Positions 13,030 to 45,694 of a DNA stretch of 64,000 bases are shown here, one piece after another. Source of the stretch: an uncultured Methanosarcinaceae archaeon (GTDB lineage Archaea; Halobacteriota; Methanosarcinia; Methanosarcinales; Methanosarcinaceae); NCBI GenBank assembly GCA_963833425.1, contig CAWHXP010000003.1, positions 512,001 to 576,000 of the forward strand, read 5' to 3'. The notes beneath the pieces are model-generated. The model was given only the letters and a program-made list of their open reading frames with translations, had not been told where the DNA came from and did not search any database. Within the stretch, counting starts at the first letter, position 1, and each line of letters opens with the position of its first letter. A program made the position numbers and the translations under genes.

Positions 13030-16000
13030 TCACTCAACAAAATAAATCATTTCATTTGGCATGAGGGTTAATTCACTATTTTCGATTCCGGACTGGACAA
13101 GCTTTTCGATCCTTTCCCATGTATTTTTGTGCGTTGTTTTTATTCCGAGGACCCTCGAAGCCTGAACAATAAGATCTTCAAGGGGAGTAGAATACTGGGA
13201 ATTTAAGACAAAGCTGACAGCTTTTTTTATTTCCTCGTCACAAATCCATTCAATTTTTGTAGGCACTTCACCATTGCGCCTGCGCAGTAGGCATACAGGT
13301 TCTGAAGATGGCCAGAAGAATTCGCCTTTAACTCGAATCTTTCCGGAACTCTCTGCAAGTACAACCGAATCTAATATACGCTGTTTGATTTTTCCGAGCA
13401 TACGGGAAATTCCGACATGCCCTTTTATCCGCTGCATCAAAGCCTCTGCATGAATAGGGCCTTCAAATTCTATAATTTTTATAACTGCCTCCGTAAGTTT
13501 TTCATCGGAAAGCTCAAAAAGGTCTCCTGAATGCGGTAGTCCTGAAGAGTAGCAGACCCTGTAAAGAGGGGCAGCAGCTTCGAGAAGTTCGTTCTTCCCC
13601 AAAAGTTTTTTAGCACCTTTCAAGAGTGACGATTCATCCAAATTTTTAACTTTATTTTTGTTTTTTAAGTATAGATCAACTCTGGAATGAGGCTTTGATT
13701 GACTTCTTGACTCAATTACGAATTTAACTTTAGATCCAATTTCAGATTCTAAATTCCACACATTACCATTGCAATTGTTCTCCTCAAAATCTGACTCTGG
13801 GTCAAAATACTCTACTGAGCCGTAAATATAAGCAAATTCATTGAGCCTTTTGTTTTTCTTTTTTTCACAGGTAGCTGAACTGTAATCGATTTCAGGATAA
13901 GCCTGGAAAAAACTTCCTCTTTCAGGCTCAGGTTCAGGTATGATTCCTGACGAATTTTCTTCTTCAGAGCGGAAATTCACATCGAATTTCAAGGATTTTG
14001 ATTTACCTAGTTTCTTTATATTTTTATTACTAATGTTCTCGTCTGCCCGCAAAGCCGTAGAATCTGATCTTAAAGCCATTTCTGGAAAAAAATCCTCTTT
14101 TGAAGAGTCTATTAGTCCCTCTTTTAGTCCAAGAGAGAAGTCTGAATAAGGCCCGTCGTCTTCAGCTTTGGACACAGCTATTGATGTGGATTTATTTTCT
14201 AGGAATCCAAATCGCAAATTTTCATCGGCTTTGTTCTCTACATTATCAATAGATGAAAATATTTCTGCAGGCCAACTCATTAACTTTTGTGCAGAATTTT
14301 TGTGTGCCTGTTTAATCCAGGCAGAAGGCTCGTTTATAGTCATAACTTCTGGTTCGGATTTTGCGTGGAGATTTTCCCGCTTTACAGCTTTTTTTATAGC
14401 TTCAAGTAGTTTCTCTTTACTTTCTTTCGGGTGAAGGTACCAGTCCGTTGACCAAACCCGATAGATTTTCCAGCCTAGCCCTTCAAGCACCTGCTGACGT
14501 AGACGATCACGATCCCGAGCAACACGAAATGAATGATAGCTTGCCCCATCACACTCAATTCCAAGCACGTATCTTCCTGGATGGTATGGATCTGGGATTG
14601 CAAGGTCGAGCCGGTACCCGGCACATCCGATCTTTCTATGGACCTCACAAACGTTTTCTACCAGGAAATCATAAATGATTTCTTCAAAAGTAGATTCGAA
14701 GTCTCCACTGTTGTATGCTGGTGGTGTGAGCCTCCCAGTCTCTGCAAACTCAAGGAATACTTTGAGAGATCGAAGTCCAAAGGATGAGTTTTCATCGAGG
14801 TCCAAATTTCTTGATGTAAAGTTCGCAAAAACAACACACTTTTCTCTTGCCCGAGTGATAAGCACATTTAGACGCCTTTCTCCTCCATCCCTGTTAAGTG
14901 GGCCGAAGTTCATGGAAAATTTTCTGCTGTTATCAAATCCGAACCCCACACTCAATAGAATAACATCTCTCTCATCACCCTGGATGGTTTCAAGATTTTT
15001 CACAAAAAAATGCTCTCCTCTCTCATTTCCTGGAGTCAAATCAAACCCGGGGTTTGCTTTCAGAAGATTCTCAATCTCTTCCTGGATGGCTTCCTGCTGT
15101 TTTACATTAAAGGTTCCGACTCCGAGGCTTTTATCTGGGTACTTGCTAAAGTGTTCGAAAACTGCCTTTGCAACAACCCTTGCTTCTATCCTGTTGACTC
15201 CACTTTTTCCCCTATCATAGACCGCATCCTTGAGATGCACAAATTTCAACCCAAGGCGCTCATCTTTCTGCATGGGGGAAGGGTAAACATAAAGTCGATT
15301 GCTGTAGAATTCCTGGTTTGAAACAGCAATTAGAGACTCGTGTCTACTTCTATAGTGCCAGCGAAGGGTCTTTATTCGGAAACTACGCTTGCAAACATTC
15401 AGAATACTTTCAAGATCTCCTGATGCAGCGTAATCTTCAGGATCCCTTTCCGGAGATTCAAAAACAGAATCAAAAAATTCAGTAGGTGGGAGTTGTTTTG
15501 AATCTCCCATTACTACAACCTGCTTTCCGCGCAGTAGAGCTCCTACCGCGTCTTCTGGCTTGACTTGGCTGGCTTCGTCAAAAATGATCACATCAAAGTG
15601 GGTGCTTCTCGGATCAAGATACTGACCAATTGAAAGCGGACTCATCATAAAACAGGGCTTAATTTTCTGCACTAAACCACCTGCTTTTTTCATGAGTGTG
15701 CGGATAGGCATATGACCACGTTTCCTATTAAATTCATTGAGCAGAATTCCGGCTTCTGAAGCTCTTGATGCTCCATAAGTTAACTTTGGAGCTTCGTCAT
15801 AAACAGAATATGTAATTCTTTTTCTATTTCCCAGGAGGACCTTTTTGTCAAGCTCTATGAATTTATTTATCTTGCTTTCATGCAGCTCCCTAATAAAAGT
15901 AGAAAGTGCCTGCCTTTTCTTAAAGGTACGGTGAAGGAGATTCTCGGCATAGTTACCTTCGAAAGCGGGGATCATATCACAAACTTCTATTTTTCCGGTT

Positions 16001-23081: not shown

Positions 23082-23558
23082 AAATATTCACTACCTGTAT
23101 AATATCAATACAATATAATTAAACTTGGTATCTAAAAATAAATATGAAATTACTCGAATATAAAGCTCAAATAAACAAAAGTACTATATCTTTTCATTTT
23201 TTTTAACATTTAAATCATCGTTATTTTGGGAAGAAAGTTTGCCCAAATTTAGATCTTATGTTCGGCTTCATCGCAAACTTGTACAAAAAGAACAAATTTA
23301 AAAATGAAGTCCGTGTATTCCTTCTGCTTAAATGTTTCAGATAAATGAAGTCTTGATAGATATTCTTGACAAAAATGGTGTATCAATCGATCAGGAATTT
23401 CATTAATTTATATTGTTCCTATTTTTTTACATAAATGCATAAGTTTTGCTATAAAATCTATGCATCCATAAAAACGAAAAATCCTATTTATCTGTGGCAA
23501 AGAAAAAAGTATAGATTTGATCTGTAAATTTATACAGTTTTTGATCACTGATCTCTGA

Positions 23559-24350
23559 TCATTTCTCAGGAAAAGCCTCAATTTCTAACCTTTTCATCTG
23601 GAGATGGACATATCCTTTGTTATCCAGTGGATTACTACTTATAAAATGAGCTATAACTTCATTTATATAGTCTTCTTTCAACTCTTTGGATACTTGTTGT
23701 ATATAAGGATGCCAAGTTGAAGCAATCCAAGCAAAAAGTCCCTTTTCACCTTCAAGGGCCATATATTTTGAAATAATTTCTAGGCGCTTAACTGAAAAAC
23801 CTGCTTTTTTGAGCCATTTATTATATTCTTCAGGTCCATAAAAACCAAATGGAAATACAAAATTTCTGAAATAAGAGCTCCATTTCTCAACTTCAAGCAT
23901 AAAGTCAGCGATTTTAAGTATTTCTGCAGCATTTCCCTTTCCACCAAACTGAGCCAAAAATATTCCACCAGGTTTGAGACTTTTAAAAAAACATTTAAGA
24001 TAATTTTCAGGAGCCTTTAACCAGTGAAGAACAGCATTGGAAAAAACAATCTCGAACTCAGAATTAAAAGTAAGTTCATCTGCGTTTATCTGCATAAAAG
24101 TAAGGTTTGAGAACTTATCTTGAGAATAGTTGTTTCTGGCAAAGGATATCATATCTTCAGAAAGATTGATCCCTAGAACAGAGCCTTTCGGTAGGATTTT
24201 TGCTACTTCAGCACTAAGCTTTCCATCTCCACAACCAACATCCAGAATCCTTTCATTCCCTTTAAAACTCAATTTCGCAAGAAGTTCAAATCCCCAACTT
24301 TTTTGAGTTGATGAATTAGAAGAATAAAATTTTGGATCCCAGTGGTACAT
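23559..24350 (-). CDS. Class I SAM-dependent methyltransferase (trans-aconitate methyltransferase-like)
   Basis: ILDVGCGDG, FSNAVLHW, LKPGG..QFGGKGN. Confidence 0.9.
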   Translation of the reverse strand: MYHWDPKFYSSNSSTQKSWGFELLAKLSFKGNERILDVGCGDGKLSAEVAKILPKGSVLGINLSEDMISFARNNYSQDKFSNLTFMQINADELTFNSEFEIVFSNAVLHWLKAPENYLKCFFKSLKPGGIFLAQFGGKGNAAEILKIADFMLEVEKWSSYFRNFVFPFGFYGPEEYNKWLKKAGFSVKRLEIISKYMALEGEKGLFAWIASTWHPYIQQVSKELKEDYINEVIAHFISSNPLDNKGYVHLQMKRLEIEAFPEK

Positions 24351-24588
24351 AAATCAATTTGTTTTTTCAAAATAAATAACTTTGTTTTTTTCGGTATTGA
24401 GTGATTTCGTTGCATAATTTATATACAAAACATTAAAATGTTAGATCAAAGCTCGTCTAACAAAGCTGTTCTGCGGTGTACCAATAATTTTGTCCATTTT
24501 ACTCTACAGCTTATACAGAGCTTTTGTGACAAAAATTATGTATTTATGAAAGCTGGATCTATTAATAATAATATAGTCATAAAAAAAT

Positions 24589-25401
24589 TCATTCCGGTTT
24601 TTCCAAAAGTGCAGGATACTTTTCTTTTAATGCTATGAGGAGCTCTTCCTCTAATTTTACACCACGAAGTGTTTTCACTTTAGAAAGCTGGTCAAGGGAT
24701 AAATTTTTTGCTCTATACAAGTTAGACCATTGAAGGTCAGCTTCTTGGAGGTTAGTTTCTTGGAGGTTAGCTTCTTGAAGGTTAGCCTCTTGGAGGTTGG
24801 CCTCCCGAAGATTAGCTCCTTGGAGGTCAGCTCCTTGAAGACTAGAGCCTTGAAGGTTGGACCCTCGACAGTTGGATCCTTGGAGGTTAGCCTCCCGAAG
24901 GTCAGATCCTTGGAGGTTAGTCTCTTGTAGATCGGCACCTTGAAGGTCAGCACCTTGAAGATCAGCATCTTGAAGGTCAGCTCCATAAAGATTAACCATT
25001 TGCATATTAGCTCCTTGAAGATTAGATCCTTGAAGGTTAGCTATCTGGATGTTAGATCCCTGAAGGTTGGAATTTTGAAGGTTAGAACCTTGTAAATTAA
25101 CCAATTGAAGGATAGATCCTTGAAGGTTAGCTCCTTGGAGGTTAGCTCCTTGGAGATTAGCTCCTTTATCCAAAATGTGAGCATTTGAAAAGTCAGCTCC
25201 TTGAAGGTTAGCTCCTATAAGATTAGCTTTCTCGAGGCTAGCTCCTCGAAGATCAGCTTCTTGAAGATTAGCCTCTTGGAGGTTAGCTTCTTGAAGGTTG
25301 GCCTCTGTGAGGTTAGCCTTTACAAAGTTAGTTCCTTGAAGATTAGCCCCTATAAGATTAGCTCCTTGGAGGTTTTTTATCTCTGAAATATCCATGAACA
25401 A
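24589..25401 (-). CDS. Pentapeptide-repeat protein
   Basis: Long run of (A/S)(N/D)LQG/E pentapeptides. Confidence 0.93.
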   Translation of the reverse strand: MFMDISEIKNLQGANLIGANLQGTNFVKANLTEANLQEANLQEANLQEADLRGASLEKANLIGANLQGADFSNAHILDKGANLQGANLQGANLQGSILQLVNLQGSNLQNSNLQGSNIQIANLQGSNLQGANMQMVNLYGADLQDADLQGADLQGADLQETNLQGSDLREANLQGSNCRGSNLQGSSLQGADLQGANLREANLQEANLQEANLQETNLQEADLQWSNLYRAKNLSLDQLSKVKTLRGVKLEEELLIALKEKYPALLEKPE

Positions 25402-25590
25402 TTATTGGCTTTAAACTAAAATAAGCATTACTATACTAGGAAGATATCTTCTGCTGTTCAGGATTTAGCTTTTAAAATCGTATCGATTCATAACACATTA
25501 AGTGTCCTAATAGCATAAAACCAAATTGTGTACTGATATTTTTTTATTAGCGAAATTCTATGTTAGTGAATCAAGATGGGGTATAATTCC

Positions 25591-26314
25591 ATGGGTTATC
25601 TTATACTTATTTATCTTATACTTATTAGAGATGGAGCACCAGGTTTGAATCCTGAGGATAGGTTTGCTGGTTGGATGGCTATTTCGCTCACCAAGAAAGG
25701 AATCAAAGAAGATCTTAGTTGTGCAATAAAACTTGAAAATATAGAATTTGATCTTGCTTTTACCTCAAATCTTGTCCGTGCGCAAGAAACGCTTTTCATC
25801 ATACTGCCCGGCCAAAACAAAACCGGTATTTTTGTCCATGAAAAGGCCGTTGAAAAAAGTAATATAGGGAAAGTTGAATGCTATTCTTACCCTATAGAAC
25901 TTAGTAAAAATTTGATTCCAATATACTATACAGCCGCTTTAAACGAACTTTACTATGGGAAGCTCCAGGGCAGAAAAAAAATCAAAAATGGAAGAAAAAT
26001 ATGGGACAGAAAAGGTCACTTCCTGGCACTGGGATTTTGAGCCAGGCCCACCTGAAGGTGAAAGCCTCAGAGCTGTCTATAAGCGTGCCGTGATCTATTT
26101 CGAGCAAAAAGTTATGCCTGCAGTAAAAGAGGTTAAAAATATAATAATCTATGCCCATCAAGGCAGTTTGAGATCTCTGGTCAAGTATATAGAAGATATT
26201 TCTGCCAAGAATATTAAAGAAATCAGATTCTCCACATGCGAGTTTGTAGTATACAATTTTTTAGAAGGCACTTTGGTTAAGGAAAATGCTGAAATAGCCC
26301 TAAAACAAAAATAA
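25591..26314 (+). pseudogene. gpmA: 2,3-bisphosphoglycerate-dependent phosphoglycerate mutase, disrupted
   Basis: LIRDG (catalytic RHG changed to RDG), RFAGW, AFTSNLVRAQET, ALNELYYGKLQG, PPEGESL, AHQGSLR. Frameshift in the A-run near 25975. Confidence 0.85.
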
Positions 26315-26783
26315 ACCTTTCAAGATTCGTCTGAAAAATTAGATGATTTTTGGTAAAAAGGTTGTTCGTAAATGTTAGGATAACATATCTCAACTATGGC
26401 TTAATTTGACTTTGTGAAATTTGTTGATGCACAGTTTTTGCTATATAAACCTATGTATCAATGAAACCAATATATACTATTTTGTAATGAAAGATGCCAT
26501 CGTTAGGAAACTTGAGGATACCGTCAAAATATTTGATTACACGCATTAATTTTTCATAAATAAGGTAAAACTTTGAATACCATGTATTTTGATTTTTTTC
26601 GACTTGAAATTAGGGTATTAGTCCAAAAATAATACTTTTAGGCATTTTATCTCTTAACCAAATACAAATGAAGCAAACCTTGTATATTTTTATATATTCA
26701 AAAATTCCGGAGAGCTGCATAAAATCGGAGTTCTTTTGCAGGAATAGAATACAATCTAATATATTTATCACGAATATTTTGTT

Positions 26784-27933
26784 GTGAAATTGCAACGGTT
26801 TAACAGTCTTGACTATCTTAAAAATCCATATAATACACGGATTTACAAGATCGTAGATGAAAGAAAAACGGGAAGGAAGTTAGTCGGCATTTTTTGTCTT
26901 TTCGTGCCTGACGAAATTATCTTTGCGGCAGGTGCTGACAGTGTAATACTCTGTGGGGGTAAGGATTACACTGTATCCATAGCGGAGCAATATTTACCCA
27001 GGAACATCTGTCCGCTTGTCAAATCTTCCTTTGGCTAGATTGTTAATACGGTTGTTCGGGAATAAAATCCTGTTCTCATTTCGACATGGTAGCCATGATT
27101 GTTGCAGAAAATACCTGCGATGGTAAGAAAAAGATGTACGAATTATTGGGAGATTATGTCCCTACTTACATTGTAGATCTTCCACAAAACCCGATAGTCC
27201 AGAAGCCCTAAACTATTTTTTAGAAGAGCTTGATAAGTTTAAGGGCGCCATGGAACAGCTGACAGGCAATAGGGTCACTGTTGAACTATTAAAGACGGAA
27301 ATAGAATCTTCGAATGAGACGAGAAAGCTACTCCACAAGCTTTATGACCTGAGAAAAATGGACATAACACCCATTAGTGGTGTTGGTGTGCTAAAGGTCA
27401 TGCAAAAGCAGTATTTTCTATCGACAGAGGAATTTAAAAAAGTAATTCACATGCCCATATCTAAAGCGAAGCAGGTTAGAGTGGACTGGACTCACAAGTC
27501 CAGGATAATGATCTCCGGCTGCCCGATGTCTGGAGGTAACACAAAAGTACCTGAAATAATAGAGAGCAAAGGCGGCGTTATCGTCGCTGAGGAAAGCTGC
27601 ACTGGCACAAGATCGTTCTGGTAGCCAGTCGACGAAGACAAGGATCCGATGCTGGCGCTGGCTGAACGCTATATCAAAATACCCTGCTCATGTATGAGTC
27701 CGAACGACAGGCGTATAGACAATATTCTAGAGCTGGCGAGGGAGTTTAAAGTCGAGGGTGTAGTGTACTATACCCTGTAATTTTGCCATGGGTACAATAT
27801 AGAGAAATATAAGATACAAAAAGCACTTAAGAAGGCTGGGATACCTATGTTTGCAATAGAAACGGACTATAGCAACTCTGATCTCGAGCAGATCAGACTT
27901 CGTGTGGATGCTTTTCTGGAGATGCTTTCATGA
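26784..27933 (+). pseudogene. 2-hydroxyacyl-CoA dehydratase family / double-cubane cluster protein-like, disrupted
   Basis: [80 protein letters not shown]. In-frame TAG (27036, 27622), TAA (27778) and frameshifts. Confidence 0.85.
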
Positions 27934-28692
27934 TCTCAGTGGGAATAGACGCAGGGTCAGCCACTACAAAGGCAGTCATGGTCGTTGCCGACCAGATTAT
28001 TTCCCATAATATAAGCCCCACAGCATTCGATTTTTTTATCAGCGTCAGAAACAGCGTATAAATATGTGCTTGCCCATGCTGGAGTCAACGAAGACAATGT
28101 GAATTTAGTGTACTCAACCGGATACGGAAGGAACAGCATAAAATTTGTCGACAGGGCTATAAGCGAGATCACCGCCCATGCCAAAGGAGTTTACCACCTG
28201 TATCCGGATGTTAATGGGATAATCTATATAGGAGGCCAAGACAGCAAGGTTATCTCAGTGAATAAGGGAAAAGTAACTGATTTTTTAATGAATGACAAAT
28301 GCGCAGCTGGCACAGGCAAATTTTTAGAGTACACGGCAAGAGCGCTTGAAGTGCCAATAGCGGAGCTGGGGAGTCTGGCACTTGCTTCAAAAACACCCGC
28401 AACCATAACAAACATGTGTACTGTTTTTGCAGAGTCTGAAGTTATATCTCTTCGTGCAAGAGGCTTTACGAAAGAAAATATCGCAGCTGGACTCATTGAA
28501 AGTATTGCCAGGAGAGTTGCTGTCATGGCCCGGCAATTAGAGCTAAAACAAAATGTAGCTTTCGTGGGCGGTGTGGCTAAAAATGCTGGTATTAAAGCAG
28601 CGCTGGAAAAAGAACTGGATATCTCGCTCTATGTGCCTCCGGAGCCGCAAATAACTGGAGCACTGGGAGCAGCACTGTATGGAATCAGTTAA
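27930..28692 (+). pseudogene. CoA-substrate-specific enzyme activase (ASKHA [4Fe-4S] ATPase, HgdC/DCCP-R type), 5' frameshift
   Basis: [16 protein letters not shown] overlapping the upstream stop (ATGA); STGYGR, EITAHAKG, IGGQDSK, MNDKCAAGTG, CTVFAESE, GALGAAL. Frameshift near 28000. Confidence 0.88.
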
Positions 28693-29264
28693 AACAGTAT
28701 TTCTAAATATAAACGGAAGCAAATCAAATGAAATGAGAAGATAGGGATATTACTGAGGCAGAAACCTGCATGGAAAAAAACATCATTAATAGGCAACAAA
28801 CTCATAAATGTAGAAAAGCATAAACAATAGCCAACAATTGAAGAGAATCCGCTCGCTAAAATTTATCAATTTGATCTGGATAAATATGGCTATTGATGAC
28901 TTTTTTATCCAAGCTGAATCGTTATGATTACTGTTTTCCTGGATTAAGCTTTGAATATAAATAGTTTTCTTATGCATAGGTTTTATAGCAAAATCTATGT
29001 ATACATCACTATTATATTGATCACGATTTTATCAAATGAGAAAAATGGATTTATAATGTACCAGAATTTTCTTACTGGTCTTAGACCTAGAGAAAAAGCG
29101 TGAAAATATCAAGGACGTTTTTTCTAGCTCATTTTTATAATTATTTTACAGTATTGAAAATTGAATTTCTGATCCAGTTTATTCGGATTTTTAGTTTTGT
29201 TTTAAATACCGCATGATTATTTTTTTCTTTTATTTCTATTTATGATTCTGATAAAGGTCAACTA

Positions 29265-29334
29265 ATTCCAGATGTTCTATGAGATCCATATGTTCTATGA
29301 GTTACATAAGTTTCATAAGCTCCATGGGTCATAG
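29265..29334. repeat. 9-bp tandem array (GTTCYATGA-like, 7 units + GTCATAG)
   Basis: attccagat/gttctatga/gatccatat/gttctatga/gttacataa/gtttcataa/gctccatgg/gtcatag. Confidence 0.8.
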
Positions 29335-30096
29335 TTTAGCAACATATCTTATTTCGTTTGGAACTTAATGGATCCAGAAAATTAGCACAAAAACTGTGCA
29401 AAGATGAAAAAGGTATCGTAAACATATATTTTCAAATATATTTTGAAACATATAGTAATCAATCTTTCCATATATATTATAATAGTTGAAGACCAATTAC
29501 CTAGTAGTAAATAAAAAAATGGTGCTCTTTGGTAGATACACGAACAATATTATTAATAATCAAACTAATTATTCAAAAATTAAGACAGATAACTAGTTGA
29601 CAAGCTGATTTTCAGCGGTGGATCTGCTAATGGGACATGCGTTATAAAGAATTATAGTGTTATTTTTTGACACTAGAAAGGAGTAAACTAAATGTTAAAA
29701 CAATCATCTGGTAGAATGAAAAAAGTACTTGCGGTTTTGCTGGCAGTACTTTTTGGATGGCGGCTCTATGAATGGGGCTGGAAACACCAGCAACAATAGC
29801 ACAAATAGCATGAATAGATGATGCAGAAACACTGCTTAACAAAATCAATTAAATGTCTCTAAAATATTTTTGGTGGTATTAGGTAATATTTACATAGATT
29901 ACTTACAAAAAAAATACCACCTTAAATGTTACCATTGATATCACAAAGAGCTTCGAGACAAAACATTATTTATGAGACAGTTTATCATCTTTTGTTCTCC
30001 TAGTTTTTCTCTAATCATTCAAGTGTGTGTCTTAATATTAGAAACTTTTAATAATTTACTGACATTTCTATTTTTGATTGTGCTTTAGTTTAATTA

Positions 30097-30157
30097 GTTC
30101 CAAGTGTTCCAGGAGCTCCATATGCTCTATGAATTCCAGAAGTTCCATGAGTCATAG
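30097..30157. repeat. 9-bp tandem array (6 units + GTCATAG), paralogous to 29265
   Basis: gttccaagt/gttccagga/gctccatat/gctctatga/attccagaa/gttccatga/gtcatag. Confidence 0.8.
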
Positions 30158-30468
30158 ATCAACAATGTTTTCTTATTATTGATGGCATTTAGGAGATCCA
30201 GAGATTTAGACCGAAAAAAGGTGCGTCAGTAACACGCGAAATCCTGTCCTTTGTGGTAAATTTTAAAGGATTTCTACAGAGCCAAAAATCGATCTTGAAA
30301 AGTAAGCAAAAGAACCAATTAATTCAATATTAGAAGAAAATTAAAAACCAGATGGGAGAAGATATTTCTTCTTTTTTGGCTCAACCTTGAAAAACATAAA
30401 GTAGCAGAATTGCTACTTTCTTTAATTGTGGTGTATTCAGATTTTGTTAGTGGATTTACCACCTGTAG

Positions 30469-31422
30469 CTACTGATTTAATGGCTTGCAACTATATTCAG
30501 TCATATAGATATCGCCAGAATCTGACCAGACTACAATATTGCTGGACACACTCGGTGTTTCCGCCGTGTTGCTGGCAAATAATTGAGTAGTCTTTCCGGT
30601 AGAAATGCAGTACACATATATATCGCCTATCCCGATATACGGATTTTGTGGCTCTTCGTTATGGTGTTTTACGTACACAATCTTGTCATCATATATGTTA
30701 GTAGAACCTCCGGTGTCATAACCATTAGTATCATTACCAGTTGTGATTTCTGTTTGTTGCTTGGTAGCAATGTCATACATACAAATGTTGCCCATTCTAG
30801 TGTTGAAATCTGACCATATGACCCTGTTTTTGTATATGTTAGGATATAGATTATAGCCATCTCTGCTTACGTCTATTGTTGTCCCAGTGGCGATATCATA
30901 CATATAAATCTGCGGAGTATCATTACCAGAATATGAATATACTGTTTTGTTTTCGTATATACTGGGATCACTACCGATTCCTATTTTAGTTTCTTTGAGT
31001 GTAGATATATCACTCATGTAGATATTACCATTTATATCAGCACCACTATTTGTACCCCAAACAATTTTCTTCCCATAAACAGCAGGTTTGCTGTATTTAT
31101 TTACGTTTTGCTTAATAGAAAATCTTGTACCAGTCTTGATATCATATACAGTAAGTTCCGGCACATTAGTGCTCTCGTTGTGCCATACTAACTGGTTGCC
31201 AGAGATAGATGGGTATGATGCTTTGGAGGAATTAATTGTAGTGTCTTTTTTAGTGGTCAGATCATAGATATGAATAACTCCATTATTTGTCCACGCTACC
31301 TTAGTACCGTCGATAGCAGGTTGAGATCCACTACCTATTTTTGTTACTTGTGTGGATGATGCTACTGTCGAAAGCAAGGTTAAAATTAAAAATAAAGATA
31401 TTAAACAAGATTTTTTTTTCAT
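30469..31422 (-). CDS. Secreted beta-propeller (TolB-like) cell-surface protein, Methanosarcina type
   Basis: Signal peptide MKKKSCLISLFLILTLL; repeats P.IY..K.VW....IYMYDI.T. Confidence 0.85.
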   Translation of the reverse strand: MKKKSCLISLFLILTLLSTVASSTQVTKIGSGSQPAIDGTKVAWTNNGVIHIYDLTTKKDTTINSSKASYPSISGNQLVWHNESTNVPELTVYDIKTGTRFSIKQNVNKYSKPAVYGKKIVWGTNSGADINGNIYMSDISTLKETKIGIGSDPSIYENKTVYSYSGNDTPQIYMYDIATGTTIDVSRDGYNLYPNIYKNRVIWSDFNTRMGNICMYDIATKQQTEITTGNDTNGYDTGGSTNIYDDKIVYVKHHNEEPQNPYIGIGDIYVYCISTGKTTQLFASNTAETPSVSSNIVVWSDSGDIYMTEYSCKPLNQ

Positions 31423-31517
31423 CTTTCTTCCCTCTCATACGCTGTACATAAGATTCAGAGATTTAGACTTTACATAAAAATAAGGAATATTGCAATAACT
31501 TAAACTATCATTGAATT

Positions 31518-31559
<42 letters not shown>

Positions 31560-32026
31560 TTATTTCTATTTAATTTGCAATATATTATGTAGGATATAGA
31601 GTATGTGTAAGTATAAAAAACAGGATTTTTAGGTATCCTTGATCCATAGATTTTGCCACAAAATCTATGCGTTTCTTAATTTCGTTGAAAGAATCACTTG
31701 ATAGTTTTTCTCTGATTCTACTTGTAGTTACACTTTGCTTTCCGTTAAAATAATTCATAAAAGCATCTAGTTTTTTCTGTCGAGCCTGGAAGCAGTAGAA
31801 ACTGGGATTAAGTTGGTGCATAATTGTAGGAAGTAACATATGATTCATTATCATAATAAAATAAACTTACTAACATATTTTATATATTCATCCTGCTAAA
31901 ATTTTTAAACTATAAAAATAATTGAAATATTGTAGTTTTAATTTTTTTTATAAATTAAAAAATTTACCAGGATATGTATGCGAAAATATGTAATTCTAAA
32001 CACAAAATCTGTTAAGAAGTGATTTC

Positions 32027-32818
32027 ATGATCTATAAGTTTGGACGTAAGGCTAGGACGTATAACCCTAAGATACCTCATATGAGTGCAATGGCTAGTCG
32101 AATAACCTCACTCCCTCCAGTACCTGACCGTGTAGACTACACTAAAGGTATTACTCAGTTTGGCATGATGGTGAATGATAAACTAGGTGACTGTACTTGT
32201 GCAGGCGTTTATCATGCGCGTCAGATCTGGACTGCTAACACAACTAATGAACGAACGGAGTCAGATCCCACAGTACTTACTCTGTATGAAGATGCATGCG
32301 GTTATCAGCCTGATAACCCATCTACAGATAAAGGTGGAGTGGAGCAGGATGTACTGACGTATATTATGACTAATGGTATACCTCTAGATAATGGCTCAGT
32401 AGATAAGATTCTAGCATTCTTTGAGGTTGATTTTCGTAACATAGATGACGTTAAGCGTTGCATCGATGACTGTGGAGTAGCGTATATAGGATTCAATGTA
32501 CCTTATTGTATGTTCGAAAACTATGATCCTCGCCAAGGTGCACTTCCCTTCTGGAGAGTAGATCCTAACAACTCGAATGTGATTATGGAAGATGGTAACC
32601 CTGCAGGTCATTGCGTAATACTTTGCGCCTACGATGAGGAAGGACCTACATGCGTGAGCTGGGGAGGAAAGTACAAAATGACGTGGGATTTCTTTACTAC
32701 ATTTACTGATGAAACATATAGTATAGTCAGTAATGATTGGGTAACTATTACAGGTAAGACTCCACTAGGTATGACTGTTGATGAGTTAGAACAACAAATG
32801 GAAGCCATTAAGGGTTAA
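32027..32818 (+). CDS. Putative papain-like cysteine peptidase
   Basis: VDYT..GMMVNDKLGDCTCAG (putative catalytic Cys), GHCVILCAYD (His), CVSWG; intact 263-aa ORF. Confidence 0.6.
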   Translation: MIYKFGRKARTYNPKIPHMSAMASRITSLPPVPDRVDYTKGITQFGMMVNDKLGDCTCAGVYHARQIWTANTTNERTESDPTVLTLYEDACGYQPDNPSTDKGGVEQDVLTYIMTNGIPLDNGSVDKILAFFEVDFRNIDDVKRCIDDCGVAYIGFNVPYCMFENYDPRQGALPFWRVDPNNSNVIMEDGNPAGHCVILCAYDEEGPTCVSWGGKYKMTWDFFTTFTDETYSIVSNDWVTITGKTPLGMTVDELEQQMEAIKG

Positions 32819-33297
32819 ATAAGAATAACTCAGTTATGACAAAATTTTAGATTACTATGACGTAACAATTAACTTTTAGTATATTTCTTGCTTGAGAAAT
32901 ATAGGAATAAAATTGAAATAATGTTCTACTGAGTATAATGTAAGCTCGAAATAAAAGTATAAAAATATTATACATTTTTCTTTTTAGACTCGTTGCCTAA
33001 TAATAATTACTTTTTACTTAAACTTCCCTTACTATAGTTATTACTGAATTTGATTACTTTGCAAAAATTTCAGAATAAGCATGTAAATCTATGGATGACG
33101 AACAAGCTATAATTGCTGGAAATATCCAAGGCAATGTATACGTTTTGATACAAAAACTGTGCATAAGTGAAAATAACATAAAATGAAATTTTGTCAGCAA
33201 AGTTATTGGCTCAGCATCTTATCTTTTGCAACAATCAAAAAATATAATAAATATCAAATTGCAGTTGACTTTTAAAAGGTTTCGTGCTGAAAATGGG

Positions 33298-33457
33298 TTT
33301 TATTCAGACACTATTTTTTTGTATCGTTAAATTCTATGGCAAAATAAATTTTATTCAGAAACATTTTTTAATTTCAGAAAATTTTATGATCTAATAATTT
33401 TATTCAAACACTTTTTTTGTATCGTTAAATTCTATGGCAAGTAAATTTTATTCAGAA
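33298..33457. repeat. ~60-bp direct repeat (2 copies)
   Basis: TTTATTCA(G/A)ACACT..TTTTTTGTATCGTTAAATTCTATGGCAA..TAAATTTTATTCAGAA at about 33298 and 33398. Confidence 0.8.
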
Positions 33458-33510
33458 ATTATTTTTTTACAGTTAATTTAAAGAATTAAAAAATATTTTT
33501 ATGAATTGTA

Positions 33511-33599
33511 GGAAAATTCGATAAATCTCGAATTTCAACAAACTGTTTATATGCCTGTTATAAATAATAAGCCAAAAATTGGGGTCTCTCGCGATCCTC
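33511..33599 (+). mobile_element. MITE family B copy (IS5-type ends)
   Basis: GGAAAATTCGATAAATCTCGAATTTCAACAAACTG...GGGGTCTCTCGCGATCCTC; inverted match at 35287-35377. Confidence 0.75.
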
Positions 33600-33637
33600 A
33601 CTCCAAAAAGTAAACCAAACTGGAGGTTAGGGAGAAA

Positions 33638-35229
33638 TGTTAAGAAAAAAGGTAACTGAGGCTAATAATTTAAGCTAAATATTGGCAAAGAAAGAATAGA
33701 ATCCGAGTTATTGCAACGACCAGGTGTTACTGGTATAGATGTCGATTTTAAGTATGTAGATGGGAAGAAAACAGACGAAATTGCTATACGTGTGTTTGTC
33801 GAAGAGAAAAAAGATGTCCCTTTTAATGAGCGAATTCCGGAAACTATAGAGGGAGTTCGAACGGATGTTATCCAGCGCACTTTAGTCCTGCAATCACTAA
33901 GAGTACCAGTTACAGAGATTATTCCTCAAGCAGATGCAGGGAACTACAATCCTTTAAGGGGAGGTATTAGCGTCGGGCCGTGTAGAGTTATCAATGGATA
34001 TGTCTACGCTGGCACACTGTGCTATCGTAAATGACAATGCAACTGGCAAACCAATGGCTTCTAAGTAATTTCCATGTCATGTGTTTGGATAATGGATGGA
34101 AGCAGGGAGACACTATGTTCCAGCCCAGCAGAGTGGATGGAGGAAACTGTCAGGCTGAGATTGTTGGTACACTATCGAGAGCTTCTCTAGGTAGACAAAT
34201 AGACTGCGCAGTTGCGGATATCACAGCACGTAATTCAGTCTGTGATATAATAGATATCGGCAATGTTAGCGTACCGCATATGTAATACATGATATGACTG
34301 TTCGAAAACGCGGCCGCACTACAGGATTGACTTATGGCTCGTTTGATGGCATCAGCTTGTCTTTCGACATTGATTACGGTGATGGTATAGGAACTAAAAC
34401 ACTTACGAATCAGTTTACTATTCGTGCCATCAATACACTAAACCCAAAATTCAACGACCACGGCGATTTAGGTTCTGTTGTAGTTAACGATGCGTCAGAG
34501 GTAGTTGGTTTACTCTTCACAGGCTCTAACGAAGACCCAGCTATTTCAATAGCCAGCCCAATCCATTCAGTAACCAGTACCTTAAATGTGAATATATGCA
34601 TTACTAATATCACTCCGACTTTTGTCCCTCTATACCGCTACTGGAACCCTGGAGGCACCGACCACTTTTATACTACTCAATGGAGTGAGTTGGGAATTGG
34701 AAATCATGGATGGGGATTTGAAGGAATTCAATGTTATGTCTGCTCACAACAACAGCAAGGAACCGTTCCACTATACCGCTACTGGAATCCTGGAATCAGC
34801 GATCACTTTTATACTAATAATTGGGGTGAGATGGGGACTGGAAATTATGAATAGGGTTATGAGGGAATTCAATGTTATGTCTACTCACAACAACAGCAAG
34901 GAACCGTTCCACTATACCGCTACTGGAATTCTGGAATCGGTGACCACTTTTATACTACTAATTGGGGTGAGCTGGGGGCTGGAAATCATGGATGGAGCTA
35001 TGAAGGAATTCAGTGCTATGTACTCACTCAATACACAGGAGGCCAACTTTCTATGGAAAAGATGGCAATTAATATCCATGGGATCAGTAGCCAACCGTCT
35101 ATACCGTGGATATTCAGAGCATTTAAGGCTGGGTCAACTGTGAAAACAGAATTGATTCCTGAAACTTTCAAGATACGGCTTGAAACAAAATCGTCACAAG
35201 GATCAAACTCGTTTACAACAGGTGATTGA
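33638..35229 (+). pseudogene. Trypsin-like (S1, Nal1-like) serine protease with three C-terminal 47-aa PLYRYWN..DHFYT repeats (DUF5648-like), disrupted
   Basis: IRVFVEEKK..IPETIEGVRTDV, GGISVGP..AGTL, SNFHV, DCAVA, KRGRTTGLTYG, GDLGS (GDSGS Ser to Leu). 141-bp repeats at 34624, 34765 and 34906. Frameshifts and TGG>TAG at 34852. Confidence 0.75.
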
Positions 35230-35286
35230 TTTTAAGGTACTAGGCATCCTTGAACCCTTTTAAGTAGATACAACTCTATTAATCTA

Positions 35287-35377
35287 GGGGATTGCTAAAG
35301 ACCCCATTTTTTTGGTTTATTGTTTATAGAAGGTATATAAGCAGTTTGTTGAAATTCGAGATTTATCGAAATATCTC
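35287..35377 (-). mobile_element. MITE family B copy, inverted
   Basis: Reverse complement matches 33511-33599; CTAG at its left boundary. Confidence 0.75.
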
Positions 35378-35402
35378 TTTTCATTTTTTATTTAATTTTC
35401 TA

Positions 35403-35489
35403 GTGGATTTCGATAAACATCCGAGTTCAACAAATTACTTATATAGCTATATAAGCAACCAGCCAAAGATTAGGTTTTATTGAAATCAT
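35403..35489 (+). mobile_element. MITE family B copy (diverged)
   Basis: GTGGATTTCGATAAACATCCGAGTTCAACAAA...TTTTATTGAAATC; CTAG at its left boundary. Confidence 0.6.
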
Positions 35490-35648
35490 TTTAAATTTGA
35501 CTGTAATTGAAAAAATGCACCGGTTTTATAGCAAAAGCTGTGCATTAACATATCAGTTTTGTAAGCCATGAGTGCTGATATGATTACTTTCTCAAAATAC
35601 ATGCTATTTGAGAAAATCTTTAATAGCGCATATAACCTTTTTTCATAT

Positions 35649-35846
35649 ATGCAAGAGACCTATAAGTTTTCAGCAGTAATTCATAAAGAAGGGAAATGGT
35701 ACGTATCATGGTGCCCAGAACTTGACGTGGCAAGCCAGGGGGAAACTATTGAAAAAACGATCGATAACCTTAAAAAGGCTGTGACACTTTCTCTTGAAGA
35801 TGAAGATTTCAAATCCCTACTGCAGGCTCGATCCTTACCACAATAA
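35649..35846 (+). CDS. hicB: HicB-family antitoxin (C-terminus possibly frameshifted)
   Basis: VIHKEGKWYVSWCPELDVASQGETIE..NLKKAV. Confidence 0.8.
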   Translation: MQETYKFSAVIHKEGKWYVSWCPELDVASQGETIEKTIDNLKKAVTLSLEDEDFKSLLQARSLPQ

Positions 35847-35857
35847 TTGAGGTTTCC

Positions 35858-36085
35858 CATGACAAAGCTTCCAATACTGTCAGCACATGAGATTATAAAA
35901 GGTCTCAATAGTCAAGGATTTAAGGTGGTCCCACAAAAGGGCAGCCATATCAAAATGAAAAAGAAAACTTCGGAAGAAACACGTATAGTCATTATCCCTG
36001 AGTATAATGAAATTCCTGTTGAACTTTGCAGTCAATAATCAGGTGGTCTGGCTTGACACCTGAAGAGTTTATTGAACTTTTTTAG
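35858..36085 (+). pseudogene. hicA: HicA-family toxin, frameshifted
   Basis: MTKLPILSAHEIIKGL...QKGSHIKM..IIP..EIPV, then TLQSIIR..GLTPEEFIELF in another frame (shift near 36020). Confidence 0.8.
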
Positions 36086-37294: not shown

Positions 37295-38249
37295 ATGCAA
37301 GCAATTGAAGTATCTCATCTCATCAAAAAATTCGGCTCTCTCACTGCAGTCAATGATATTAGTTTCTCAGTTGGCGAAGGAGAAAACTTTGTTTTTTTGG
37401 GTCCAAATGTGCCGGTAAAACTACTACCATTCGTATTCTGACCGGAGTATCAAGACCAACATCTTGAACAGCAACCATCTTTGGCTATGATATTGAGCAT
37501 GATACCATTAATGCACGGCAATCTATGGGTATTGTATCCGAAAATTCCAACGTTTACGACGATCTGACTGCATGGCAGAACATGATGCTCTCAGCTGAAC
37601 TCTATCATGTAGGACGAAAGGAGAGATAAAAAAAGGCTACCGAATTGCTCAAGAAGTTTGAGTTATACGAACGTCGCAATGACAAAGCGCATGGTTTTTC
37701 AAAGAGAATGAAAAGACGCCTGACCCTTGCAATGGGGCTAGTTAACAGCCCAAGTCTGCTGTTTCTGGATGAACCAACCTCAGGACTTGATATACAGAGT
37801 AACCTTATCATTCGTGAGGTGATTTCAGATCTCATTCTCGATGGAGTCACTGTTTTTTAACGACGCACAATATTGAGGAAGCAAATGTAATGTGTGATCG
37901 GGTGGCTATCATCAATAAAGGAAATATTATTGCAATCGATGCACCAGAATCTCTAAAAAAGACGTTCAAAGGTGCACAGTCCATAGAAGTATCTTTTGAC
38001 CGGAATTCTGCAGATCACCTAGATGAACTTAGCCACCTCTCCATGGTGAATGAAGTACAAAAAACAGGTGACAAGTTTAAGCTCTATACTGAAGATCCAG
38101 CTGAAGTTATTGATGACGTAGTAACTTATGCTCATACGCATAATCTTAAAATTATAAGCATCGCTACTCTTGGCCCAAGCCTCGAGGATGTATTTGTAAA
38201 ATTAACTGGTCTGCAGCGGGCAGGTGATGGGATCCATGCAATCGATTAA
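37295..38249 (+). pseudogene. ABC exporter ATP-binding subunit (DrrA-like), disrupted
   Basis: MQAIEVSHLIKKFG, GPN./AGKTTTI, LFLDEPTSGLD, TTHNIEEA, CDRVAII; frameshifts and stops. Confidence 0.88.
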
Positions 38250-39002
38250 CCAGGAGGGGTATGTAAAACATATTTCCTGTGAGAGACCTGCTGCGTGGGC
38301 AATTGCCAAAAAAGACATGCGGATCTACCACCTTAAATCAAATATTATCGTTGCTGGCATCTTATTTCCACCTTTTATGTTCCTAGCTTTGCCATTGGAA
38401 AGAATGCTTCTCCAGATGCCCTGATTCCGGGATTGATCTTGATCACACTTCTGTTTTCATCATCACAAATAGAACCAGTCTCAATACCTATGGAAAGGAG
38501 AGTAAAAACTTTTGAACGTTTGTTCTCGGCACCAATTTCTCTTTATTAGCTGGTGTTTTGTGAGAGCCTGAGTGGATTTTTCTATATTCTCAGCATCGCA
38601 TGTCTTCCTCTTGTAGTTGGTGTGATCATCTTCAGCACCCATATTGTACACCCAGCTGTCCTTGTGATTTCCATGATCTTCACAGCATTCTGTTTTGCGA
38701 CGCTTGGAACACTGTTCGCTGCATACCCTACCGAGAATGTGGGTGAGGTTATGTCTATGCTTAATACAGTAAGGCTACCGCTCATCTTTATCTCGGGTGC
38801 TTTTTTGCCGATATCTTCTATGCCACATATAGGTCAGAAGATTGCACTTATACCCCCACTTAAATATGGAAATGATATGATCTAATATGCGTATACTGGT
38901 AAATCACTTTTTTCACCGCTGTTGGATGTTGTAATGCTGATGATCTTCATCCTGATATTTCAGATAACTGCAAACTATCTTTACAAAATATTTAACGAAT
39001 GA
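38236..39002 (+). pseudogene. ABC-2 type permease, disrupted
   Basis: AWAIAKKDMR, MERRVKTFERLFSAP, RLPLIFISGAFLP; frameshift, TAG at 38547 and TAA at about 38883. Confidence 0.82.
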
Positions 39003-39190: not shown

Positions 39191-40310
39191 GTGAAACAGG
39201 AAAACGATTTCATAGTTTTTCATGGTAATCTGCAACAGTTAATGGAAAAAGTGGAAACTGGAGAGATGATCCCCAAGCTTCAGGCTTCCCACTCTCCAAT
39301 GTGCAAATTTTTTTACAGCCTATTACGTCATCAGCGGGATCCGTCATGTAGTTCCCCTGGTCCACGGTCCGACCGGGTGTCCGCTGTACATGTCAGATTT
39401 TGTAAGGACACGGGAATGCTGCGAGATCCGTGGAGTTCCATTAGAACCCACAGCTTGCACCTCGCTAGACGAAAGCTATGTCATACGGGGGTGAGGGAAA
39501 ACTACTGGAAGCAGTAAAGGAAGCATACGCTAAGTACCACCCAATCTCATCGTCATTCTCTCTTGCTGCTGCTCCGGGATCATCGGTGATGACGTCGAAA
39601 GCATTGCTCGCGAGGCAGAGAAGTTGGTTGGCTGCCGGGTGCTTTGACTGGGGACAGAAGCTGGGTGACTTGATGCAAGAACGGTTTTCGGCATTCCTTA
39701 CAGCCAGACTGGGCAGCCCTATGGCCCTGAGGCCACAAAGGAATGGCTGCTCGGCGTGGCAACACCTCTTGGCATGGAGGCAGCAGCTATTAAAGTGATT
39801 AAACGAGAGATGCAGGAAGTAGAACCGGGAATTGCATATTTAAGACAGGCTCTCTCCGAAAAAACGGCTATTGTAGAAATATCGGAATTTCCAGGGCCTA
39901 TACGAGCGCTTTCCATGCACTGATGGCAGCAGAGTTTGGTGCCCATCCTGTCGTGATCAACGTCCATCCATATACAATCAAGGAACGTATGCCCAGCATC
40001 AAGTTTCTCCTGGAAACCGGGGTTAACCCGGAGATTATTCTGACAAAAGGACTCTTCCGGCTAGGGAGCCTTCGATCGTCCAAAGAGACCGAGGCCGAGC
40101 TAGAGGCGATTGTTAAGGAATATGATAACCCTATCTTCTTTGGGAATTCAGGCCGGTTTCCTCCCTGTCCAGTGGTGAACTTAACACTCATGAACCCATC
40201 GTTTCAGCCCCAGTACGGCTTCCGGGGAATTAGGAACATCTCCGCTCTAGTCAGACAGGCACTTGAGAACAAAGATCTCCTCCGCTCTCGATTGTTTAAG
40301 GGGATGCTCT

Positions 40311-40330
<20 letters not shown>
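39191..40330 (+). pseudogene. Nitrogenase component-1 family protein (NifD/NifE-like subunit A), disrupted
   Basis: Reconstructed across frameshifts: PMCKF, VHGPTGC, CTSLDESYVI.GGEGKLLEAV, ILSCCCSGIIGDDVE, PYGPEATKEWL, QYGFRGIRN. Confidence 0.8.
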
Positions 40331-42523
<2,193 letters not shown>

Positions 42524-44840: not shown

Positions 44841-45694
44841 GGTTCCGTTGCAAAAAATCCTTTCTACTGATACAATAGAATAAAAAGAAAACCAAAGATA
44901 GTGATATGCTATCTAATTCCTTTAAATGGAAGCATTATGAAGGGGGAATTATCCTATTAAATGTAAGATGGTACTTAAAATATGCATTAAGTTATAGAAA
45001 TTTAAAGGAAATGATGGCAGAAAAGGGAGTAAAAGTCGACCATACAACAATCATTAGATGGTTAGATCAATATTCCCCTGAAATAGAAAAGAAGATAAGA
45101 AGACATTTAAGACCAACAAATGATTCGTGGAGAGTTGCTGAAACCTATATCAAAGTAAAAGGTAAATGGGACTATTTTTACCGAGCAGTTGACTCAAATG
45201 GAGATACAATTGATTTCATTAAGTTCAAAACGAGATAGAAAAGCAGCAAAGCGATTCTTTAAGAAAGCTTTAAGTTTTAATCATAATCAAATTCCACGAG
45301 TAATAACAGTTGATAAGAATCCAGCTTATCCACCTGCTATAGATAAACTAAAAATTGATAAAATACTACCTAAAAACGTAGGCATTCGACAAATCAAGTA
45401 TTTGAATAACATTATAGAACAAGATCACAGATCTGTAAAGCGAATCGTTAATCCAATGTTAGGATTTCAGTCTTTTCGATCTGCTAATAAGACTTTAAAA
45501 GGAATTGAAGCTATAAATATGATCAAAAAAGGACAAGTAATCGATCTAAATTACTCTGTTCTTAATGAAGTCAAATACATTAATCAATTATTTGGTATAG
45601 CTTTATAATGTTAGTACATTTTCCTTGAATATTTTGATTTTTATTAATTACTTATAGATTTACATATTTTTTTTGAAGTTTTTGCAACGGAACC
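44841..45694 (+). mobile_element. IS6-family insertion sequence with frameshifted transposase (44906-45608)
   Basis: Inverted repeats GGTTCCGTTGCAAAAA / TTTTTGCAACGGAACC. Motifs VRWYLKYALSYR, WRVAETYIKV (DDE Asp changed to Ala), YRAVD, VDKNPAY, NNIIEQDHR. Confidence 0.92.

Follow-up and report, generated by a model that had tools for sequence, protein, structure and literature searches.

Introduction

On Acinetobacter plasmids, discrete modules of 1-3 kb are separated by pdif sites, 28-bp sequences of 11-6-11 layout that are served by the host recombinases XerC and XerD. The Cre/loxP site has a 13-8-13 layout, the Fim system combines 9-bp inverted repeats that flank a 314-bp switch with the small tyrosine invertases FimB and FimE, and the integron integrase IntI comprises about 320 aa. 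Among archaea, Methanosarcina has some of the largest and most rearranged genomes, a plasticity whose cause is poorly understood. The present analysis concerns a 64,000-nt stretch of DNA from an uncultured Methanosarcinaceae archaeon (assembly GCA_963833425.1, contig CAWHXP010000003.1, positions 512,001 to 576,000; hereafter the window, with coordinates counted from its first letter), in which 31-bp dyads, inverted arms around a short spacer, lie between blocks of unrelated genes. With a probability of roughly 55%, these dyads can be read as solo copies of the core binding and recombination site of Methanosarcina-specific, small (about 200 aa) single-domain tyrosine recombinases. The recombinase family is most likely restricted to Methanosarcina and its relatives and undescribed: literature searches by keyword and by 13-mer sequence returned no description of the motif or of the recombinase-site pair, and the available portions of two reviews on tyrosine recombinases (PMC8371274, PMC8138268) make no mention of the system.

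Comparison with described systems

The dyad system works like pdif modules or like a plasmid recombinase-site pair, and it fails the defining features of integrons, of Xer/pdif and of repetitive extragenic palindromes (REPs) with their REP-associated tyrosine transposases (RAYTs). Short dyad sites scattered between modules, the same module in differing contexts and toxin-antitoxin cargo are shared with pdif. However, the Methanosarcina site measures 31 bp (13-5-13 or 15-1-15) and not 28 bp (11-6-11), it is linked to and co-varies with a dedicated recombinase of about 200 aa where pdif uses host Xer, and it is mostly chromosomal, archaeal and without assignable orientation. A dyad with 13-bp arms beside a recombinase gene and a single site per replicon, as seen on three Methanosarcina plasmids, recall Cre/loxP; the differences lie in the many solo chromosomal copies, in an enzyme without N-terminal clamp domain and in a shorter, hypervariable spacer. 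FimB and FimE resemble the Methanosarcina enzyme in its length of about 200 aa, in consisting of the catalytic domain alone and in genes located near surface-structure genes, but the Fim system comes with its 314-bp switch, whereas no invertible segment has come to light among the Methanosarcina loci.

A tyrosine recombinase gene with an adjoining site, together with small accessory modules in arrays, toxin-antitoxin pairs among them, is also reminiscent of integrons. Nevertheless, the RYYYAAC and GTTRRRY boxes are absent by inspection from the consensus ATRCAYAGNTTTT-RYNRY-AAAANCTRTGYAT, in agreement with an earlier sequence-only reading of the window that had noted the lack of an attC layout, and there is no sign of a folded single strand. 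Integron cassettes are co-oriented, mostly without promoters of their own, and carry the site at the 3' end, whereas the Methanosarcina genes are not co-oriented; IntI has an insertion specific to it and sits beside attI at the head of the array, whereas the enzyme of about 201 aa is some 120 aa shorter than IntI, and the arrays are not anchored at the recombinase gene. With REPs and REPINs (the subject of PMC2817692 and PMC3733652) the dyads share shortness, palindromic symmetry, many copies per genome, strictly intergenic positions, occasional doublets and the association with one family of tyrosine-using enzymes. RAYTs belong to the HUH Y1 transposases, and their substrates are single-strand hairpins with a GTAG tag. 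In contrast, the dyad arms do not co-vary, the GTAG/CGTC tag is absent, and the linked enzyme is a Phage_integrase protein (PF00589) with a fold like that of XerA, Int and IntI, not an HUH Y1 protein.

Dyads in the window

Seven solid copies of the 31-bp consensus are found in the window, all of them within 23435-35545. A consensus search with up to three mismatches detected five copies, against none in 100 dinucleotide-preserving shuffles. A profile trained on 98 copies of other genomes, from which the window copies had been excluded, returned seven sites with E-values from 2e-8 to 5e-4 (23435, 24513, 26427, 28972, 31642, 33134/33142 and 35515), and the next-best matches had E-values of at least 0.085. 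The seven copies are packed into 12.1 kb of the 64 kb (scan-statistic p ~3e-4 under uniform placement). The RYNRY spacer is symmetric in its own right, which makes the dyad effectively 15-1-15.

All eight palindromes listed in the sequence-only reading are present. Six of them are solid by profile; the copies at 29372 (marginal) and 30196 (undetected by profile) are decayed, and a solid copy at 24513-24543 had been overlooked. The statement that copies lie outside genes, 5' and 3' alike, holds for all of them with respect to open reading frames (ORFs) of at least 100 aa. The sequence at 30196 is assigned to the family because window positions 30090-30207 are 89.8% identical, over 118 bp, to the flank and dyad of the intact copy in locus L050. 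The individual copies, with the flank classes that are defined in the next section, are:

23435..23465, no strand: dyad site 1, ATGCATAAGTTTT-GCTAT-AAAATCTATGCAT; profile E 1.9e-7; right flank of class 1; 94 bp past the methyltransferase stop and 354 bp upstream of argC
24513..24543, no strand: dyad site 2, ATACAGAGCTTTT-GTGAC-AAAAATTATGTAT; profile E 2.9e-5; flanked by the start of the methyltransferase gene and the stop of the pentapeptide gene; one flank related to locus L047
26427..26458, no strand: dyad site 3, 6-nt spacer; profile E 1.6e-4
28972..29002, no strand: dyad site 4, ATGCATAGGTTTT-ATAGC-AAAATCTATGTAT; profile E 2e-8, the top-scoring copy of the window
31642..31672, no strand: dyad site 5; profile E 1.9e-6; left flank of class 1; between the divergently oriented beta-propeller gene and 263-aa ORF
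33134..33164, no strand: dyad site 6; profile E 4.6e-4; right flank of class 3 (about 80 nt conserved)
35515..35545, no strand: dyad site 7; profile E 1e-5; 23 bp upstream of the hicB-like ORF
29372..29401, no strand: decayed dyad; profile E 0.13 (marginal); class-4 flank with a 24-codon mini-ORF (MTHGAYETY...) 39 nt away on the minus strand
30196..30226, no strand: decayed dyad below profile detection; class-4 flank with a mini-ORF (MTHGTSGIH...) on the minus strand

Two degenerate dyad-like sequences are located in a gene-free, low-GC stretch at 11824-11850 and 12496-12533, one of them combining the canonical arms with a spacer of about 15 nt. Both may represent variant or decayed sites beyond the range given above. 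A (TA)n microsatellite of about 40 bp (~31520-31560) lies in the divergent region beside the dyad at 31642.

Distribution and nature of the dyad family

An IUPAC pattern scan of one genome per species (185,579 species) gave lower-bound counts of at least 110 loci and at least 111 unique matches; the figures on loci and matches in this text refer to those listed. Contigs labelled Methanosarcina, Methanosarcinaceae, Methanosarcinales or 'Methanobacteriota' account for 96 of the 111 unique matches. The window motif is one of a family of repeats that is scattered over the intergenic DNA of Methanosarcina and its relatives. Several of the 15 other matches have Methanosarcina-type flanks or genes (WARW01000021, two DATCHW contigs and JBEKMY010000084). 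The contigs concerned are binned as Patescibacteria, Ignavibacteria and Smithella (L053/L054 on WARW01000021, L013 and L077 on the DATCHW contigs, L016 on JBEKMY010000084) and hold Methanosarcina-type dyads, flank classes, a TPR gene like that of the window or the recombinase (91% identical to that of L075); they are probably mis-binned.

The loci amount to 561 kb, in which the profile detects at least 132 copies; densities of 2-5 per 10 kb are frequent. All but one of the 90 scorable copies lie outside ORFs of at least 100 aa. Their gene context is convergent in 23 cases, divergent in 20 and tandem in 46, with neither a preference for 3' or 5' gene ends nor an integron-like polarity, and the median distance from a site to the nearest start is about 380 bp. 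Terminator and simple operator readings, which were tried and set aside, are weakened by this lack of gene-end bias. Three positions of the arm are variable; across 98 copies, Watson-Crick pairs between the two arms were observed there 53, 45 and 42 times, compared to 50.6, 38.2 and 34.8 expected if the arms were independent. Since the arms vary without covariation, the dyad appears to be a double-strand site with two half-sites for a protein dimer and not a hairpin.

Similarity between copies is mostly limited to the 31-bp core. Beyond it, four flank classes were distinguished among 300 arms. Class 1 spans about 100 nt up to a terminal TTTACAGAACTTTCAGTACACTGCC (33 arms, of which three lie in the window), class 2 is marked by a further dyad at a distance of about 55 nt (21 arms), class 3 extends over about 80 nt (18 arms, of which one lies in the window) and class 4 includes a mini-ORF some 21 codons long (9 arms, to which the two decayed copies of the window are added). 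The class-4 mini-ORFs comprise 21-24 codons of the MTHGAYGTPRTSGAH... type, are imperfect repeats at the DNA level and start 39-46 nt from the dyad in 10 copies. As several copies lack an ATG, they may be a DNA repeat and not a peptide gene. Their positions are:

window 29259-29371 and 30090-30195, minus strand: class-4 mini-ORFs
L005, L012, L024, L042, L049, L057, L074 and L078: class-4 mini-ORFs in other loci

A linked tyrosine recombinase

When the ORFs near the sites were clustered, a protein of about 200 aa emerged that carries the Pfam domain Phage_integrase (PF00589). By tblastn, its gene or fragments of it are present in 15 of the 110 loci, which correspond to 14 places, and the gene is carried by five Methanosarcina plasmids; a tyrosine recombinase beside the motif, which had been proposed as a check, was therefore found. 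At these 14 places and on the five plasmids a dyad lies 40-125 bp upstream of the gene. The layout consists of Pal1 (13-5-13), about 55 nt, Pal2 (12-5-12, a variant whose TATA-like centre is A/T-only), 10-23 nt and the ATG, as exemplified by locus L054:

264-294: Pal1
349-377: Pal2, ATACACAGATTT-AAATA-AAAACTGTGTAT, 12-5-12
388: ATG of the recombinase gene
993: stop of the recombinase gene

Locus L075 is 91.5% identical to L054 over exactly the interval from Pal1 to the stop (264-993, 730 bp), with both flanks unrelated. The M. barkeri 227 plasmid (L111, NZ_CP009529.1, 39.6 kb) has its sole strong dyad at 28067-28097 (E 4e-8), 105 bp upstream of the integrase ATG and with Pal2 in between. The RefSeq integrase coding sequence of this plasmid (27993-28814) begins 210 bp upstream of the conserved ATG and spans both Pal1 and Pal2; its annotated start is probably too early.

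The strongest argument for a cognate pair of site and enzyme comes from co-variation of the two. In M. vacuolata Z-761 and M. barkeri Wiesmoor, the plasmid integrase is 63-65% identical to the L054 protein, and each of the two plasmids has a single dyad of another type, CGTCAGGTTTT-N5-AAAACCTGAYG, in the same position. A third recombinase subtype (L055 and L035; 51% identity) is accompanied by AGCTACGTTT..AAACGTAGC dyads of the AGCTACG type, and the Pal1-Pal2 layout is kept. Three recombinase subtypes with three dyad types point to cognate site-enzyme pairs.

The family comprises at least 223 clusters at 90% identity, with proteins of 200-240 aa whose only names are 'site-specific integrase' and 'tyrosine-type recombinase'; contigs of about 1 kb harbour many of the homologues. 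Residues R55, K85/K87, R145, H168 and Y177 are invariant across 32 aligned recombinases. An AlphaFold2 model (pLDDT, the predicted local distance difference test, 90.8) has its best matches among solved structures exclusively in tyrosine recombinases, namely XerA (4a8e), Brujita Int, IntI (2a3v), XerH and Tn1549 Int, with TM scores of about 0.55-0.63. The protein thus carries the catalytic residues of the tyrosine recombinase superfamily on its conserved catalytic fold, and the enzyme looks active, as the catalytic R-K-R-H-Y residues are invariant. A search of the recombinase profile against the sequences of solved structures gave nothing below an E-value of 0.3, the score on the XerA model NF040815 is 19-22 bits (cut-off 220), and the NCBIfam alignment pairs residues 22-177 with XerA 94-251, the catalytic half alone. 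A protein-atlas search with the recombinase yielded generic 'Phage integrase' clusters and nothing further. The ssrA gene of pC2A was considered as the enzyme and rejected, being a larger gene according to the available part of PMC9569500 and absent among the plasmid matches.

Homology breaks and module boundaries

Alignments of at least 250 bp and at least 78% identity between different assemblies were used to locate homology ends, and an end was counted when it lay no more than 8 nt from the far edge of a dyad. Nineteen of 245 unique ends fulfil this definition, compared to 1.1 on average, and never more than 5, in 1000 permutations; in loci of at least 2 kb alone, 14 of 236 ends fall at dyads where 0.76 are expected. 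The sequence-only reading had suggested looking for breakpoints inside the spacer; what the comparison of assemblies shows is an enrichment of homology ends at dyad edges.

Individual modules illustrate the same feature. A PAS histidine-kinase module of 2346 bp is bounded by dyads at both ends in the CAVTET and CAWKGG assemblies, where it is 91.7% identical and has unrelated flanks. Together with the homology ends, it provides discrete site-bounded modules in differing contexts, a pdif-type feature. In the window, positions 25543-26458 (the mutase gene and dyad site 3) are 91.8% identical over 917 bp to locus L020 (CAVXNY010000009); the match stops at the outer edge of the dyad at 26427, and L020 continues with a TPR gene. 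A synteny comparison of window positions 28.5-36.5 kb with contig PLUB01000069 found that the short dyad flanks match and the neighbouring genes do not. Plasmid gene families (PKD surface proteins and DUF1699) recur in dyad-bearing chromosomal loci, and the commonest neighbours of dyads are PKD, NosD and beta-propeller surface-type proteins (28 ORFs on 18 contigs). Among 37 non-independent pairs of copies with one flank in common, the flank-side arm has a total of 48 mismatches, the far arm 64 and the 5-nt spacer 73.

Weighing of the explanations

Several observations weigh against the reading of the dyads as recombination sites. All the evidence is comparative, and no recombination event has been observed. 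As the sequence-only reading had stated, the window itself is without a recombinase (tblastn, and a six-frame profile search with a best E-value of 0.14). None of 64 sites in the four site-richest assemblies (CAVTET, CAWKGG, CAVXNY and PLUB) lies in one of the retrieved loci that bear a recombinase; one of these assemblies, CAVXNY, is the source of the closest match to the window (91.8%) among the matches listed. Arm mismatches amount to 2.1-2.6 in these four assemblies versus 0.5-1.6 in recombinase-rich ones, and 16 of 21 Pal1-Pal2 doublets have no recognisable recombinase gene downstream, some of them being followed by decayed gene starts. Classical tyrosine recombination requires matching spacers; the dyad spacer is hypervariable, so that most site pairs might not recombine. 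The roughly 17-fold excess of homology ends at dyads is somewhat overstated because the control consisted of random positions and not of random intergenic positions, and several shared-module ends lie away from dyads, with no hidden dyads found there by inspection. The flank-side arms of the kinase module differ at 3 of 13 positions compared to 8% in the module itself, and across the flank-sharing pairs the flank-side arm is just slightly better conserved than the far arm. Finally, the conserved flanks of 40-110 nt that accompany many dyads in four classes (33, 21, 18 and 9 of 300 arms) fit small self-spreading repeats as well.

Such repeats would be non-autonomous selfish elements, similar to MITEs (miniature transposable elements with inverted repeats) or REPINs, that consist of a dyad with 40-130 nt of flank and copy into intergenic DNA, perhaps with the recombinase as transposase. 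The genes between dyads would then not be mobilised, and the homology breaks would reflect insertion at, or rearrangement of, variable DNA. The four recurrent flank classes, which stretch the repeat to about 130 bp, speak for this explanation, as do the short flanks without common neighbouring genes in the window and PLUB01000069, a flank-plus-dyad unit with three copies beside different DNA in a single assembly (L084, L102 and L023), the many recombinase homologues on contigs of about 1 kb, as for multi-copy elements, and the gathering of sites in gene-poor, pseudogene-rich DNA. It is nonetheless considered rather unlikely. Similarity between copies is mostly confined to the core, and in the units of about 130 bp, made of a dyad and its flank, no second terminal repeat, no further terminal inverted repeats and no target-site duplications were noted, a systematic search for them not having been made. 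Moreover, the 2.3-kb kinase module is dyad-bounded at both ends in two genomes, and exactly one site beside one gene, as on the plasmids, is the layout of a recombination site.

The same lack of arm covariation that suggests a dimeric binder of double-stranded DNA would also suit operators through which the recombinase-like protein, or another dimeric factor, controls adjacent accessory genes, recombination not being the main role of the dyads. Autoregulation would fit the TATA-like centre of Pal2 at 10-23 nt before the recombinase ATG, and the class-4 mini-ORFs start at a distance of 39-46 nt from the dyad in 10 copies. Yet the sites show no preference for gene 5' ends (convergent 23, divergent 20, tandem 46), the nearest start lies about 380 bp away in the median, the invariant catalytic residues argue for an active enzyme, and homology breaks at the dyads, which together render operators improbable. 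A comparably low probability is given to inversion switches, in which the recombinase would flip dyad-flanked segments and thereby vary the expression of surface or accessory proteins. An enzyme of about 200 aa without a separate core-binding domain, near-symmetric sites that allow inversion as readily as deletion, and the frequency of PKD, NosD and beta-propeller neighbours agree with such phase variation. The kinase module has opposite orientations in its two loci as fetched, but this does not demonstrate inversion because contig orientation is arbitrary; no pair of loci has the same flanks and an inverted middle, the inter-site distances of 1-2.6 kb cover whole genes and not promoters, and the plasmids have a single site each. 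Very improbable and largely refuted is a nucleic-acid hairpin, be it an RNA stem-loop or terminator or the single-strand end of a REP or of an IS200/IS605 insertion sequence. The dyad lends itself to being drawn as a stem of 13 bp that carries a loop of 5 nt, and tnpA and tnpB of IS200/IS605 occur on Methanosarcina plasmids; however, the arms vary independently without compensatory changes, there is neither strand nor 3'-end bias, no Rfam match was obtained, the conserved 5' tag of REPs is missing by inspection, and the sole dyad of the M. barkeri 227 plasmid lies 14 kb from tnpA and adjoins the integrase. Missing covariation and the plasmid layout were the grounds on which hairpin, REP and IS200/IS605-end readings were dropped.

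Proposed mechanism and implications

If the dyads are core sites of the linked recombinases, a mechanism can be inferred, from binding and catalysis at the dyad to autoregulation and the direction in which events run. A recombinase dimer would bind each dyad, two bound dyads would synapse, and strands would be exchanged in or beside the RYNRY centre, so that the DNA between the sites might be integrated, excised or inverted. The geometry appears compatible with a tyrosine-recombinase core site, with its crossover region of 6-8 bp, if the dyad is read as 12-7-12. Binding to Pal2 would repress the recombinase's own promoter. On plasmids, one gene with one site could serve as a resolution or integration module, and on chromosomes, repeated events would lead to patches of accessory modules of 1-2.6 kb with dyads between them. 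The window region from 23.4 to 35.5 kb would be such a patch of six modules. As it contains no recombinase, it may be served in trans, for example by a plasmid that is missing from the genome bins; alternatively, it may be largely fossil, since many of its genes are broken and two of its sites are decayed.

Module exchange at the dyads is plausible on these grounds. A more far-reaching proposal, made tentatively and with less confidence than the assignment of the dyads themselves, is an integron-independent exchange system in which a diversified family of recombinases of about 200 aa, consisting of the catalytic domain only, and co-evolving 31-bp dyads would insert, excise and shuffle accessory modules of 1-2.6 kb among chromosomes and plasmids and build site-punctuated patches such as that at 23.4-35.5 kb of the window. 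The cargo named in this proposal comprises surface proteins, sensors, toxin-antitoxin pairs and enzymes.

Were this the case, the pairing of a dedicated recombinase and its cognate sites, hundreds of them in dispersed positions, would offer a concrete mechanism for the gain, loss and shuffling of accessory genes in one major group of methane producers, and an archaeal counterpart of integrons and pdif modules built from different parts. The compact recombinase of 200 aa and its defined 31-bp site, of which several orthogonal specificities exist, could also be turned into a tool for methanogen genetics. Should the sites turn out to be fossils or selfish repeats, they would still be markers of the flexible genome and of mis-binned contigs.

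Gene content of the window

By Pfam and NCBIfam, the window is a Methanosarcina-type chromosomal segment (argJ, argC, Nre and CheB-CheR) with many split genes. Blocks between consecutive dyads measure 1.0-2.6 kb and form six modules with unrelated cargo and genes on both strands:

23559..24350, minus strand: module 1, class I S-adenosylmethionine (SAM)-dependent methyltransferase (Pfam/NCBIfam)
24589-25401, minus strand: module 2, pentapeptide-repeat protein
25576-26314, plus strand: module 2, frameshifted dPGM-type phosphoglycerate mutase
26784-27624, plus strand: module 3, double-cubane/HgdB-like reductase fragments
28066-28692, plus strand: module 3, acyl-CoA dehydratase activase without N-terminus
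30469..31422, minus strand: module 4, Methanosarcina-type beta-propeller repeat protein (TIGR04275)
32027..32818, plus strand: module 5, 263-aa ORF without Pfam or NCBIfam match
33711..35143, plus strand: module 6, several ORFs that overlap or are frameshifted; DUF5648 domain in one of them
35568..36038, plus strand: after the last dyad, a hicB-like ORF (no family match) followed by the HicA toxin

The cargo labels 'papain-like' and 'serine protease' of the sequence-only reading found no support in Pfam or NCBIfam, and tRNA and Rfam scans of the window gave no match. Split or truncated genes include the phosphoglycerate mutase (25576-26314) and the double-cubane reductase (26784-27624) as well as nitrogenase-like, NifH-like and ABC transporter parts at 40263-42075 and 37890-38885; they reflect either decay in this lineage or frameshift errors in the assembly.

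Toxin-antitoxin pairs (HicAB, a RelE/ParE-like pair and a PIN fragment) recur beside dyads and beside the recombinase gene (L054 1045-1506; L075 5041-5561 and 7303-7806; window 35568-36038), and a hicAB pair also lies 3' of the recombinase in L054. A frameshift-split IS6/IS240-type transposase gene is located at 44906-45608, copies that are 82-96% identical occur in five dyad-bearing loci (L007, L014, L038, L042 and L073), and an IS240-like end lies 140 bp from Pal1 in L054. Two overlapping ORFs with DUF772 and DDE_Tnp_1 domains (6784-7610) represent a broken IS4/IS5-type transposase, with relatives of 72-74% identity in L032, L041, L042 and L062. On the minus strand, positions 13030-18486 encode a protein of 1818 aa with DUF4011, an AAA_11/AAA_12 helicase, an MTES_1575 restriction-endonuclease-like domain and DUF3320, which may be a defence or repair helicase-nuclease.

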